Assembly (NCBI GenBank): GCA_002426575.1
Contig: DIRE01000063.1
Coordinates: 32,401 to 78,384 of the forward strand
Direction of reading: 5' to 3'
Source: Clostridiaceae bacterium UBA5444
Lineage (GTDB): Bacteria; Bacillota; Clostridia; Clostridiales; Oxobacteraceae
Length of the DNA stretch: 45,984 nucleotides
Of the stretch, positions 39,872-42,189 are shown piece by piece. The position numbers and the translations under genes are program-made. Under the pieces are notes generated by a model, which was not told where the DNA came from, made no database searches, and saw nothing but the letters and a program-made list of their open reading frames with translations. The first letter of the stretch is position 1. Each line of letters opens with the position of its first letter.

Positions 39872-41080
39872 TTACTCTGCAGCTTTGAAATTGTAAATAG
39901 GTTTTATAATTTTTATAACTTCAGCAGTAGGTTCTATGTTTTCTATAATTTCATTCATATCCTTATATGCCATTGGGCATTCATCTAGAGTTTCCTTATT
40001 CACAGAAGTTGTGTATACATTTTCCATCTGCTTTTTGAATTCTGAAACAGTAAATGTGTTTTTTGCCTCTCTGCGGCTCATTAGACGCCCTGCACCATGA
40101 GGAGCAGAATAGTTCCAATCCTCGTTGCCTTTTCCTATACAAATTAAGCTACCATCACGCATATTAATTGGAATAAGCAGTTTTTCTCCAAACTTTGCAG
40201 ATACTGCTCCCTTTCTAAGTATCATATTATCAGTATCAATATAGTTGTGAATGGTTGTAAACTGCTCATAAACATCTAGTTTCATACCACGTACAATCTC
40301 ATAAACCATGGCCTTTCTATTAATTTCTGCATACTGCTGTATTATTTTCATATCATGTATATAATCGTCAAATAAATCTTCTGATACATAGGCAAGTCCA
40401 GAGGGTATGTTGGTAAGCACTTGCTTTTTTAGTTCTTTTATAGCCTTTTGAATTTCTTTTTCTCTGCCATTTGCCTTATAATCTGCTATCAGACTATCAA
40501 TAGCCTTCCTATCATTGCCATTTAATCTTTTATATGCAAGCTCTTGATACAATTTAGCTACCTCATTCCCAAGATAGCGGCTGCCAGAATGGACGACAAT
40601 ATATATATTACCCTCTTCGTCTTTATCTGCTTCAATAAAATGGTTTCCCCCTCCTAGTGTTCCAATACTGTGGATTGCACGATGATAGTTTATGTTATTA
40701 TAGCAGCGAAGCTTAGTCAAATCTATCTCATCACTAAACTTATGCGGCGTCTCTCTTACATTCATTCCAGATGGAATTTTTGCATATATTAATTTATCAA
40801 GTTTTTGTAGTTCTATATGTTTATTAGATATCTGAATAGTTTCCATACCACATCCTATGTCAACTCCCACAAGATTTGGAACAACCGTATCTTTTATGGT
40901 CATAGTAGTACCTATGGTGCACCCGGCATCTGCATGAACATCAGGCATGATGCGTATTTTAGCACCTTCTGCATATTTCATATCGCAAAGGCATTTAATC
41001 TGGGCCATAGCAGCATCTTCTATAGTATCGGTGAATACCTTCGCAGTAGCATGTTCACCTTTTATTTCAATCATCTTCAT
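39872..41080 (-). CDS. rtcB: RNA-splicing ligase RtcB (3'-phosphate/5'-hydroxyl RNA ligase)
   Basis: Conserved RtcB motifs: IMPDVHADAGCTIG, GVDIGCGM, GGGNHFIE, SAPHGAGR. 402 aa. Confidence 0.9.
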   Translation of the reverse strand: MKMIEIKGEHATAKVFTDTIEDAAMAQIKCLCDMKYAEGAKIRIMPDVHADAGCTIGTTMTIKDTVVPNLVGVDIGCGMETIQISNKHIELQKLDKLIYAKIPSGMNVRETPHKFSDEIDLTKLRCYNNINYHRAIHSIGTLGGGNHFIEADKDEEGNIYIVVHSGSRYLGNEVAKLYQELAYKRLNGNDRKAIDSLIADYKANGREKEIQKAIKELKKQVLTNIPSGLAYVSEDLFDDYIHDMKIIQQYAEINRKAMVYEIVRGMKLDVYEQFTTIHNYIDTDNMILRKGAVSAKFGEKLLIPINMRDGSLICIGKGNEDWNYSAPHGAGRLMSRREAKNTFTVSEFKKQMENVYTTSVNKETLDECPMAYKDMNEIIENIEPTAEVIKIIKPIYNFKAAE

Positions 41081-42189
41081 TCTCCCTTCAAAATCTTAGT
41101 AAGTTGTGATAGCAAATCATTACCACCACTAACAGTTATATTACCTACATTCTCGCAAATCTTTTCTAGATATTCAAGTTCCTTTAATTTATAAAGGGTT
41201 TTATTTTCTTCCATCAATTTTGCAGTATTGAGCAAACTTCGTGTAGATGCAACTTCTTCACGGCGGGTTATTACGTTGGCCTGTGCCTTTTTCTCAGCAA
41301 TAAGCACAGTGTTCATAATGTCTCGTATTTCACCTGGGAGAATAATATCCTTAACTCCTGCATCATAAACAGTTATAAAGTAATCACTTTCTCTTTCCTT
41401 AAGCTTTTTAAACACAAATTCAGATATTTGCTCTTTATTTTCAAGAATTTCATCAATACGATATTTACCAACATATTCACGTAGAGCCAATTGTAATGTT
41501 ACATGAATTTGTTCCTTAAAATCTTCTATTTCATCATAGATTTTCACATAATCAGAAATCTTATAATGGCATACAAGGTTTATACGAAGTGCTACCTTAT
41601 CAAGTGTCAAAGTTTCCTGACCCGTAATATCCATTTGCAAAAGACGTGTATCAACAAATCCTACATCAATTTTTGTACCATTATTCCAAAAATAATATGT
41701 ACCTTCATCTAATAGTTTTACAAACTTTTGATTAAAATACATTCTTGCCTTTTGAAAATGAGCAACCTCTATTTTAAAATAGTATGTTTGTGGTATATAT
41801 TCAAAAATAAATTTGGGAATATTCTCTGCTACTTCAGTATTTGAAATATCTATTTCTTTAAACTCATGATTGTCATATACACTCCAAAAGGCATATTTAC
41901 CGCTTTGCAAGCAGCCTGAAAATTTCCCATTTATATAATGAAGCACAATAGTTTCATCCTGAACATCAACAACAGAAATCTGTTGTTGTATATCCTTATC
42001 CTTCAAAAACACAGATAAATCATAGCCAGGCAATTTAAATTCATTAGAAATGCTGACAATATGAACCTTTGCAGAATTACCGAAAAATCGGTATTTACCT
42101 GCGCCAAGCATTTTAACAAATTTACCGTTTTTAAAGAGTAAACCCCTCTCATTTTCGCTAACAATTACTTTCACGATATACACCTCCAA
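41077..42189 (-). CDS. SPFH/band-7 (stomatin/slipin-like) domain protein, translationally coupled to rtcB (ATGA overlap)
   Basis: C-terminal SPFH signature (ILPGEIRDIMNTVLIAEKKAQANVITRREEVAS...). N-terminal region resembles a second degenerate band-7 start (ERGLLFKNGKFVKMLGAGKYRFF). 370 aa. Confidence 0.65.
   Translation of the reverse strand: MEVYIVKVIVSENERGLLFKNGKFVKMLGAGKYRFFGNSAKVHIVSISNEFKLPGYDLSVFLKDKDIQQQISVVDVQDETIVLHYINGKFSGCLQSGKYAFWSVYDNHEFKEIDISNTEVAENIPKFIFEYIPQTYYFKIEVAHFQKARMYFNQKFVKLLDEGTYYFWNNGTKIDVGFVDTRLLQMDITGQETLTLDKVALRINLVCHYKISDYVKIYDEIEDFKEQIHVTLQLALREYVGKYRIDEILENKEQISEFVFKKLKERESDYFITVYDAGVKDIILPGEIRDIMNTVLIAEKKAQANVITRREEVASTRSLLNTAKLMEENKTLYKLKELEYLEKICENVGNITVSGGNDLLSQLTKILKGE

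Follow-up and report, generated by a model that had tools for sequence, protein, structure and literature searches.

A Band-7/SPFH–RtcB locus with a structured leader RNA and a WYL regulator pair: a probable RNA-repair cassette in a Clostridiaceae genome

What does an SPFH/Band-7 gene do beside the RNA ligase gene rtcB, and how far does the unit to which both belong extend? The question is raised by a locus of Clostridiaceae bacterium UBA5444 (GenBank assembly GCA_002426575.1, contig DIRE01000063.1, positions 32,401 to 78,384 of the forward strand). The whole stretch of DNA that was analysed, 45,984 nucleotides (nt) long, is called the window, and coordinates in it are counted from its first letter. 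The locus very probably belongs to the Band-7/RtcB repair class. We consider it probable that it forms a self-contained, damage-inducible RNA-repair cassette of the Band-7/SPFH–RtcB type, running from 44818 to 39872 on the minus strand; the single steps of its mechanism are much less certain. The order on the minus strand is the WYL regulator pair, a terminator with a conserved block, a leader RNA, the SPFH gene and rtcB, all co-oriented. The four genes are listed here.

43580 to 44818, minus strand: gene for a transcription regulator of 412 amino acids (aa) with winged helix-turn-helix (wHTH), WYL and WCX domains, first of an overlapping pair (Pfam WYL 7.7e-7; PADLOC WYL 1.8e-10)
42661 to 43608, minus strand: gene for a 315-aa WYL–WCX protein, second of the pair, overlapping the first by 29 nt (PADLOC WYL 2.2e-7, residues 138–308)
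41077 to 42174, minus strand: SPFH/Band-7 ('slipin') gene with a 365-aa product predicted to be soluble (Pfam Band_7 2.3e-29)
39872 to 41080, minus strand: rtcB, gene for an RNA 3′-phosphate/5′-OH ligase (Pfam RtcB 3e-63; open reading frame (ORF) of 402 aa; likely start ATG 41074)

Conservation and identity of the SPFH and rtcB genes

One genome per species was scanned for relatives, which gave 80 species-level loci with an SPFH identity of 58–68%. Most of them are from Clostridia (Oscillospiraceae, Lachnospiraceae, Acutalibacteraceae and Christensenellaceae), and the set also takes in Dielma and other Erysipelotrichaceae, Robinsoniella and one Coriobacteriales genome. Carriers that have been cultured include Aminipila terrae, Dielma fastidiosa and Robinsoniella peoriensis. 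The rtcB gene was counted in the 66 loci with at least 1.4 kb of sequence downstream of the SPFH gene, the WYL pair in the 53 loci with enough upstream sequence, and R2, a structured element of the leader RNA, in the 78 loci with at least 160 nt upstream.

In the comparison, 49 of the 66 loci had rtcB downstream of the SPFH orthologue at a distance of at most 2.3 kb, and in 43 the distance was at most 150 nt. The adjacency spans Oscillospiraceae, Lachnospiraceae, Erysipelotrichaceae and one Coriobacteriales genome, with an RtcB identity of only 50–80%, and judged from these sequences it is beyond chance. The pairing that an earlier note on this DNA had picked out is conserved in its gene neighbourhood. 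The gap between the two genes was zero or less in only 8 of 59 loci, with a median of approximately 60 nt; the tight junction is confined to a few relatives.

The leader RNA and the WYL genes are more constant companions of the SPFH gene than rtcB is. R2 was present in 76/78 loci, the tRNA-like module R1 of the same leader in 61/76, and homologues of both WYL genes together upstream of the SPFH gene in 45/53. All 15 loci that lack a downstream rtcB despite enough sequence have kept R2, and most of them have kept the WYL pair. Other RNA enzymes appear at the position of the ligase gene. Locus L005 (3830–5936) carries an RlaP nucleotidyltransferase and, after it, a CCA-adding enzyme with an HD domain between the SPFH gene and rtcB, and in L068 RlaP directly follows the SPFH gene (7158–7907). 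Both RlaP proteins match the Pfam family 'RNA repair pathway DNA polymerase beta family' (9e-89 in L005, 1e-90 in L068). R2 and mostly the WYL pair persist without rtcB; therefore, as far as the sequences tell, the constant core is the WYL pair, the leader RNA and the SPFH gene, while RtcB, RlaP and the CCA-adding enzyme are variable partners. The earlier note had described the operon as SPFH and rtcB with no rtcA, rtcR or archease. The operon is more than this pair without a regulator: the note stopped at 42189 and missed both the leader at 42606–42219 and the WYL genes at 42661–44818.

Small genes were also seen between the SPFH gene and rtcB in L024 (2594–2986), L079 (4575–4964), L072 (7194–7805) and L063 (7255–7806). 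They include a gene for a DUF4275 protein and genes for unassigned proteins of 183–203 aa.

The assignments of both genes in the earlier note were confirmed. Besides its Pfam match, the RtcB protein has intact motifs for metal and guanosine monophosphate (GMP)-histidine (nucleotidyl-histidine) binding: MPDVH, GVDIGCGM, GGGNHF, VVHSGSR and PHGAGR line up with their counterparts in Pyrococcus PH1602 and Thermus TTHA1785. Its scores stay under the cut-offs of the NCBIfam RtcB equivalogs, so that it represents a separate subgroup of the RtcB-family ligases. The SPFH protein passes the hidden Markov model test, and the Band_7/SPFH match of Pfam spans residues 154–312 of the listed ORF (41077 to 42189, minus strand).

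The starts of both genes were reconsidered. A ribosome-binding site (RBS), GGAGG, at 42187–42183 stands 8 nt before GTG 42174; the ORF list gave TTG 42189 as the SPFH start. Translation from GTG 42174 gives a 365-aa product that aligns end to end with database protein P0001 at 100% identity, and family members are uniformly close to 365 aa in length. By these sequence features, GTG 42174 rather than TTG 42189 is most likely the SPFH start. The junction with rtcB reads GAATGAAG, in which the ATG at 41080 overlaps the TGA at 41079–41077. The RBS GGGAG at 41086–41082 leaves a spacer of 7 nt to ATG 41074 and of only 1 nt to ATG 41080, and most homologues align from residue 3. ATG 41074 is the more likely rtcB start on these grounds, and with it the genes would be 2 nt apart, still tight and not overlapping. 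An ATGA overlap with translational coupling had been claimed for this junction. Its letters are present; the better-supported starts place the SPFH stop 2 bases before the rtcB start.

RtcA, RtcR, archease and TROVE proteins were not found in the 25 window ORFs covered by the Pfam scan, in which ORFs shorter than 130 aa were not included. The likely real genes among the unscanned ORFs of at least 130 aa encode 594, 1241 and 1717 aa, which is too long for RtcA or archease. Within the scanned ORFs, the earlier statement that the window holds no rtcA, rtcR or archease stands. Next to rtcB lie the SPFH gene on one side and, on the other, a convergent gene for a small export protein.

The SPFH family is very large: more than 7,000 database proteins match, under the NCBI name 'slipin family protein', and the family profile matches stomatin at 4.6e-21. 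Neither the window SPFH protein nor 13 homologues showed a hydrophobic or transmembrane segment on the Kyte–Doolittle scale. The 19-residue mean peaked at 0.81 for the window protein and did not exceed 1.28 for the homologues, compared with approximately 1.6 for a transmembrane helix. An NfeD gene is not adjacent to the SPFH gene, which is flanked in the operon by rtcB on one side and by the leader RNA, and then the WYL genes, on the other. In the AlphaFold2 (AF2) model, residues 1–175 are all-beta, with a predicted local distance difference test (pLDDT) score of 84–90, and are followed by the SPFH domain and a long C-terminal helix. Foldseek matched the model to stomatin (2.5e-12), HflK/C, prohibitin, flotillin, erlin and the major vault protein (1.2e-8, 413 columns, whole query). 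Stomatin, HflK/C, prohibitin, flotillin and erlin form rings or cages. On this evidence, the protein is best described as soluble, with a domain order like that of the vault protein. In two longer SPFH homologues, P0002 (638 aa) and P0052 (496 aa), the N-terminal beta repeat of approximately 135 aa is present in one or two additional tandem copies.

The leader RNA and the regulator genes upstream

The intergenic region between the regulator genes and the SPFH gene is 470 nt long, holds no credible ORF and is conserved in blocks. Its features are as follows.

42637 to 42680, minus strand: palindrome AAAAGTTGCG-N14-CGCAACTTTTTTT (42680–42644) followed by CGATGAT; it resembles a terminator for the regulator genes and is also a candidate operator or UP element
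42613 to 42618, minus strand: candidate −10 box TATGAT (consensus of relatives TAAAAT), from a promoter scan
42526 to 42606, minus strand: 5′ domain of the leader with the long-range closing helix UGCAGAGUUGCUU/AAGUAAUUUUGC, supported by covariation and duplex energies
42485 to 42521, minus strand: two variable hairpins with 7-nt loops like anticodon loops, ACGGG-CUUAAAU-CCCGU and GGCA-CUUCCCU-UGCC, from a hairpin scan
42420 to 42471, minus strand: tRNA-like module R1 (28.1 bits, E 1.5e-5 in the window)
42334 to 42365, minus strand: near-perfect 15-bp hairpin GUCAUAGACUUAUGC-UU-GCAUAAAUCUAUGAC between R1 and R2, from the sequence and the minimum free energy (MFE) fold
42219 to 42328, minus strand: R2, a rod-like structured element of 110 nt (window score 83.3 bits, E 2e-21), which stops approximately 45 nt short of the SPFH start codon

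The structured leader RNA is approximately 390 nt long (42606–42219, minus strand). The conserved RNA begins with UGCAGAG at 42606, 6 nt after the −10 box, from which we infer a transcription start near 42606. The folding z-score of the window leader was −3.57 against dinucleotide shuffles, and the MFE fold of the single sequence recovered the same helices. Rfam 15 gave no match at the gathering score for the leader in the window or in the intergenic regions of 11 related loci; the E-value mode returned only chance-level matches, including tRNA at 16.2 bits (gathering score 29). A scan found no consensus terminator between the leader RNA and the SPFH gene.

R2 consists of six stacked helices parted by the invariant internal loops GGAUACCG, CCARAG, UYCCGC and CUYAA, and its outer stem closes well upstream of the RBS. 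The R2 model gave one match per source, always just upstream of the SPFH gene, with a median distance of 50 nt to the start; no other match was found on either strand of the 809 kb searched. In the alignment, 88% of the cells were paired, and covariation was 0.647, compared with 0.21 in shuffles and at most 0.146 in slid controls. The hairpin at 42334–42365 is poorly conserved in sequence among relatives and has no adjacent U-tract.

In R1, a T-arm (GCAGG-UUCGAAU-CCUGC) comes first. It is followed by a closed acceptor-like hairpin (CGAAC-AAGAAA-GUUCG), after which stands a small hairpin (UUUU-GGUU-AAAA). The acceptor-like closed hairpin has 5–7 bp, and the GG in the loop of the last hairpin is conserved in at least 90%. 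The covariance model of R1 found 63 sources at E<1e-4, all on the SPFH strand and approximately 275 nt upstream of the start. In the R1 alignment, 97.7% of the cells were paired and compensatory changes occurred in 14/16 pairs; none of 500 shuffles reached these values, and slid controls gave 24–55% pairing. A canonical T-loop was present upstream of the SPFH gene in 66/79 loci. The alignments of R1 and R2 were fitted to the models, which inflates the pair counts somewhat; nevertheless, the result of the slid controls and the variety of pair types speak for real helices in both modules.

Other folds were considered for this part of the leader and set aside. The evidence does not support a genuine tRNA in front of the SPFH gene: ARAGORN called no tRNA in the window, and the Rfam tRNA score is the low one given above. 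The Rfam tRNA alignment at 42506–42445, with a GUUC/GAAC acceptor, conflicts with the covariation, which pairs CGAAC locally with the downstream GUUCG. A cloverleaf in which GUGUAUG pairs with the 7 nt after the T-stem is possible in some loci of the Oscillospiraceae type and fails, by the alignments, in the window and in minimal forms of the RNA. A helix enclosing R1 was also rejected, the flanks pairing no better within a locus than between loci. Twenty loci (e.g., L001, L008, L015, L025 and L033) have a second T-arm look-alike, GGGG-UUCAACU-CCCC or close variants, 20–45 nt upstream of the main T-arm; the window leader has one T-arm only.

The 5′ domain is the most conserved stretch of the intergenic region. 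Its 5′ end pairs with a segment approximately 70 nt downstream, through 12 pairs in the window. The closing helix shows compensatory changes in relatives (GCAAG/CUUGC, GCAGG/CCUGC, GCAGA/UCUGC, ACAAG/UUUGU and GCAAAG/CUUUGC; further inside, ACCCUC/GAGGGU and UGCGAU/AUCGCA). Its duplex energy was −12.97 kcal/mol within loci and −10.31 kcal/mol when loci were swapped; the median rank was 0.18, where 0.5 is expected, and the window ranked at 0.05. Within the helix lie a hairpin and an arm resembling a D-arm, GGUGCCC-GA-GGU-GUU-ACC-GAA-GGGUAUGCC. Covariation is seen in the stem of the latter (GCAC/GUGU, GCCC/GGGU, GCGC/GCGU and ACGU/ACGU), and nowhere in the intergenic region is the sequence more conserved than in the flanks of this arm, CGGUGC and GUAUGCC.

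The number of variable arms after the 5′ domain ranges from 0 to 3 among loci, and the minimal form of the RNA has none. Outside the window, an arm is either a second T-arm look-alike of the kind described above or a mimic of an anticodon loop. The two loops of the window lie at 42516–42510 and 42495–42489. In approximately 16 loci, a count that ignores kinship, the arm loops read YUGUNAA (CUGUCAA, CUGUAAA, CUGUUAA or UUGUGAA) and resemble GUN anticodons, those of the tRNAs for Asp, Tyr, Asn and His. Loops of 7 nt with the anticodon-loop signature occur in L010, L013, L016, L017, L021, L027, L031, L043, L046, L050, L057, L073, L078 and others.

Sequence comparison tied the WYL proteins to solved structures only weakly, and a fold comparison was needed. 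The AF2 model of the 412-aa regulator (pLDDT 70) gave 32 Foldseek matches at E of at most 1e-3, all of them WYL regulators; they include DriD (1.5e-11), PafBC, CapW, BrxR and the Cas13d accessory protein WYL1, with alignments of approximately 350 columns. In the family of the 315-aa protein, Pfam WCX was found in 13/13 members and WYL in 6/13, and a helix-turn-helix (HTH) was not detected in the 315-aa protein. Profile comparison did not support paralogy of the two WYL families: the hhalign probability was only 4.5%, and the label 'PafB/PafC-like pair' therefore rests on domain content and gene arrangement. By analogy, the WYL pair presumably takes the place of RtcR as the regulator of the cassette.

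The DNA between the pair and the leader suggests where such regulators could act. The promoter scan showed ATGATA-17-TATGAT at 42641 to 42613, in which the −35 is weak. The right half of the palindrome, AGTTCGCARCTTTTTTTCCGTGAT, is 80–99% conserved across loci, even in L001, L005 and L014, whose left half is not complementary to it; as a result, it is a candidate operator, or UP element, for the promoter downstream of it. This conservation, unusual for a plain terminator, suggests a protein-binding site. A conserved block, (G)GTAAAATAT-N3-5-TTGCAAGG, is present near the promoter in related loci. In the window, the conserved DNA block stands at 42660–42637, and the AGTTCGCAAC-T7 block is the putative target of the WYL pair.

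The remaining genes of the window are ordinary chromosomal genes for a glycine cleavage system, sugar ABC transporters, glycosidases, a lipoate ligase and ABC exporters. Two very long minus-strand ORFs, at 8918–14071 (1717 aa) and 14287–18012 (1241 aa), adjoin the sugar-transport and glycosidase genes. Just downstream of the cassette region, at 35924–38922 on the minus strand, a gene for an ABC ATPase (291 aa) and a gene for a 708-aa multi-pass membrane protein overlap by 4 nt. A phage or mobile-element origin was rejected, as relatives of the SPFH protein were not found in viral contigs and the rest of the window is ordinary chromosomal DNA. A known anti-phage defence system was also rejected, PADLOC having matched the four cassette proteins to generic WYL models only.

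Proposed mechanism and alternatives

In the most likely mechanism, the cassette would work as an RNA–protein scaffold for repair. The WYL proteins would bind single-stranded nucleic acid derived from damage, as DriD, PafBC and CapW bind single-stranded DNA and WYL1 binds single-stranded RNA. They would then switch on the weak promoter at approximately 42640–42613, a role that RtcR has in canonical rtc operons. The leader would be transcribed together with the mRNA and, whole or processed, may serve as the RNA partner of an SPFH scaffold, in the manner of the Salmonella Y RNAs. The SPFH protein could oligomerise into a soluble ring or cage, like other SPFH proteins and the vault protein. Acting with the tRNA-like RNA, it may recruit broken tRNA or rRNA, or present it, to RtcB or other repair enzymes. 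RtcB would reseal 2′,3′-cyclic-phosphate or 3′-phosphate ends to 5′-OH ends.

Several observations weigh against this reading. The C-terminal helix of the SPFH protein is modelled at low confidence (pLDDT <50). About a quarter of the loci (17/66) lack rtcB next to the SPFH gene, and the sequences suggest that the pair of SPFH protein and RNA may have a function independent of the ligase. The likeness to tRNA is partial: ARAGORN called tRNAs in only 4 of 79 related upstream regions, where it read His, Asp and Lys anticodons, and the R1 flanks paired at −7.28 kcal/mol within loci and −7.70 kcal/mol across loci, with a median rank of 0.53. R2 always stands approximately 50 nt (median) before the start codon in the 76 loci that have it, as would suit a leader acting in cis. 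According to bioRxiv 10.1101/312249, the b7a-tRNA, or band 7-associated tRNA, of such systems lacks experimental validation. A 2026 study (PMC13086221) describes the Pseudomonas aeruginosa SPFH gene paFlo8 as embedded in an rtc locus, and its deletion as having no phenotype when the secretion of pyocyanin, protease and elastase, swimming or biofilm was assayed; the assays described did not cover RNA damage.

The main rival reading is a leader that is purely cis-regulatory, setting the translation or stability of the SPFH–rtcB mRNA by sensing a protein, a ligand, a tRNA-modifying enzyme or a nuclease, and not a partner of the SPFH protein at all. The RNA and the genes are indeed co-oriented, the scan showed no strong terminator between them, and the invariant internal loops of R2 resemble those of leaders that bind ligands or proteins. 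However, no alternative terminator or anti-terminator is evident, no helix sequestering the RBS was seen, and the outer stem of R2 closes well upstream of that site. A multi-domain leader of 390 nt is also large for a simple switch, and its tRNA-like module parallels the Salmonella Y RNAs, which are co-transcribed with rtcB and act in trans. We consider a purely cis-acting leader unlikely. Less likely again is that anticodon nucleases and other toxins aimed at tRNA meet the tRNA-like leader as a decoy or sentinel, such that its cleavage, or its religation by RtcB, reports or absorbs the attack while an SPFH cage shields the RNA. The tRNAs for Asp, Tyr, Asn and His are the targets of colicin E5, and the variable arms carry a 7-nt anticodon-loop signature, with GUN-type look-alikes in the approximately 16 YUGUNAA loci. 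The anticodons read by ARAGORN in four loci fit the same idea, and so does an arm number that varies between species, as expected under conflict-driven change. Yet the window loops CUUAAAU and CUUCCCU are not of the GUN type, the minimal RNA lacks such an arm, and the loop counts ignore relatedness. The four proteins match no known defence system beyond generic WYL models in PADLOC, and the missing viral relatives of the SPFH protein likewise speak against a decoy, which we regard as improbable.

The earlier note had suggested that the SPFH protein anchors RNA repair to membrane microdomains. Most characterised SPFH proteins (stomatin, HflK/C, flotillin and prohibitin), which are also the best structural matches, are bound to membranes, and this favours the view, but the hydropathy maxima (0.81 in the window, at most 1.28 in the homologues) leave neither a transmembrane helix nor a hydrophobic hairpin. 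The usual anchor site of SPFH proteins, the N-terminus, is modelled here with confidence as an all-beta repeat module, the SPFH gene has no NfeD neighbour, and the vault protein is an example of an SPFH-like fold that builds a soluble particle. A membrane-associated protein is not borne out by these features, and we give the membrane view very little credence. The adjacency might also be incidental, with unrelated genes sharing an operon in this lineage. The 17 loci without a neighbouring rtcB and the limitation of tight coupling to a few relatives would agree with that; the 49 loci across families with RtcB proteins only 50–80% identical, and the other RNA-repair enzymes that take the rtcB position in some loci, would not. 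The link is also reported independently in Proteobacteria (bioRxiv 10.1101/312249 and PMC13086221). Mere coincidence is hardly credible.

The scaffold reading can be extended. The leader and the soluble SPFH protein may make up a bacterial vault-like ribonucleoprotein, with a cage of repeats, shoulder and helix, R2 as the binding site, mimics of tRNA parts as nuclease bait or sensor, a WYL heterodimer that senses RNA fragments, and RtcB as one interchangeable client. We put this forward as a speculative idea that is itself rather unlikely to hold in full.

What bacterial RtcB repairs and how its substrates are found is an open field, and in the literature searched the Band-7 branch was never experimentally tested. 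The locus offers a compact, well-delimited system with a candidate promoter and operator, two sensor-regulator genes, two covarying RNA modules, a soluble SPFH protein and a ligase. The RNA and the SPFH gene stay together where the ligase gene is missing or replaced, which shifts attention from the ligase to the RNA–protein pair. A soluble SPFH protein here suggests that some SPFH proteins are not membrane organisers. If confirmed, R2 and the leader layout would represent a class of large structured RNA outside Rfam 15 that is common in gut Clostridia.

Comparison with known systems

The SPFH domain is shared with the membrane scaffolds stomatin, HflK/C, flotillin and prohibitin, whereas their N-terminal anchor and NfeD partner are absent here. 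The major vault protein has the same domain order, with N-terminal beta repeats of variable copy number, an SPFH-like 'shoulder' and a long helix. The vault is a soluble SPFH-related particle associated with small RNA. The likeness is at the level of the fold only (E 1.2e-8, TM-score 0.34, 12% identity), and the window protein is far smaller; membership of the vault proteins is not claimed.

Two overlapping genes beside a stress or defence operon that they presumably control recall pafB and pafC, adjacent genes whose products form the heterodimer PafBC. The 412-aa protein shares its fold with PafBC, DriD, CapW and BrxR, and WYL and WCX domains occur in both proteins of the window. The differences are an identity of only 10–15%, a 315-aa partner with no detectable HTH, and a pair that is not detectably paralogous.

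Compared with the canonical RtcR–RtcA–RtcB operon, the window has no RtcA gene adjacent to rtcB, and RtcR was not found in the 25 scanned ORFs. The rsr-yrlBA-rtcBA operon of Salmonella encodes Ro60/Rsr, the RNAs YrlA and YrlB, and RtcB and RtcA under RtcR. Both are ligase operons with a scaffold, in Salmonella a ring-forming and RNA-binding one, and with structured RNAs that have a tRNA-like part; for the window this parallel is drawn from the genes. Unlike the Salmonella operon, the cassette has an SPFH protein as its scaffold, no TROVE/Ro protein among the cassette genes and scanned ORFs, no RtcA, and the WYL pair in place of the sigma-54 CARF regulator RtcR. The crystal structure of the tRNA-like domain of Salmonella YrlA shows a T stem-loop, a closed acceptor-like stem-loop and a D stem-loop. 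R1 shares this order of T, closed acceptor-like and D-like GG stem-loops, and the T-loop UUCGAAU and the GG loop are conserved here. It differs from YrlA in having no conserved enclosing anticodon-like helix and no identified Ro-binding stem.

The closest comparison is with the Band-7/SPFH–RtcB systems. The abstract of the 2016 study by Burroughs and Aravind reportedly proposes SPFH/Band-7 and Rot/TROVE modules as scaffolding cofactors with cognate RNAs. The idea of SPFH and RNA as scaffold or cofactor originates in that study, as far as the available sources describe it. The paper bioRxiv 10.1101/312249 credits Burroughs and Aravind (2016) with the prediction that some bacteria encode RtcB next to a Band-7 protein and a non-coding RNA, the b7a-tRNA. 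The pairing, which the earlier note took for an unusual or uncharacterised variant, is thus a known, computationally predicted kind of system, of which this locus is one more member. Shared features are RtcB with intact motifs, a conserved co-oriented SPFH gene, a tRNA-like RNA alongside and RlaP as an alternative partner. The RNA here is a multi-domain leader of approximately 390 nt rather than a plain cloverleaf; for the b7a-tRNA, Rfam has no family. R2, the multi-domain layout of the leader and the dedicated WYL pair were not found in the searchable literature, in which Burroughs and Aravind (2016) is represented through citation, and novelty is not claimed for them. The present locus contributes a complete anatomy of the cassette, together with two RNA modules that are backed by covariation and have no match in Rfam, and with it the Band-7 branch becomes directly testable.

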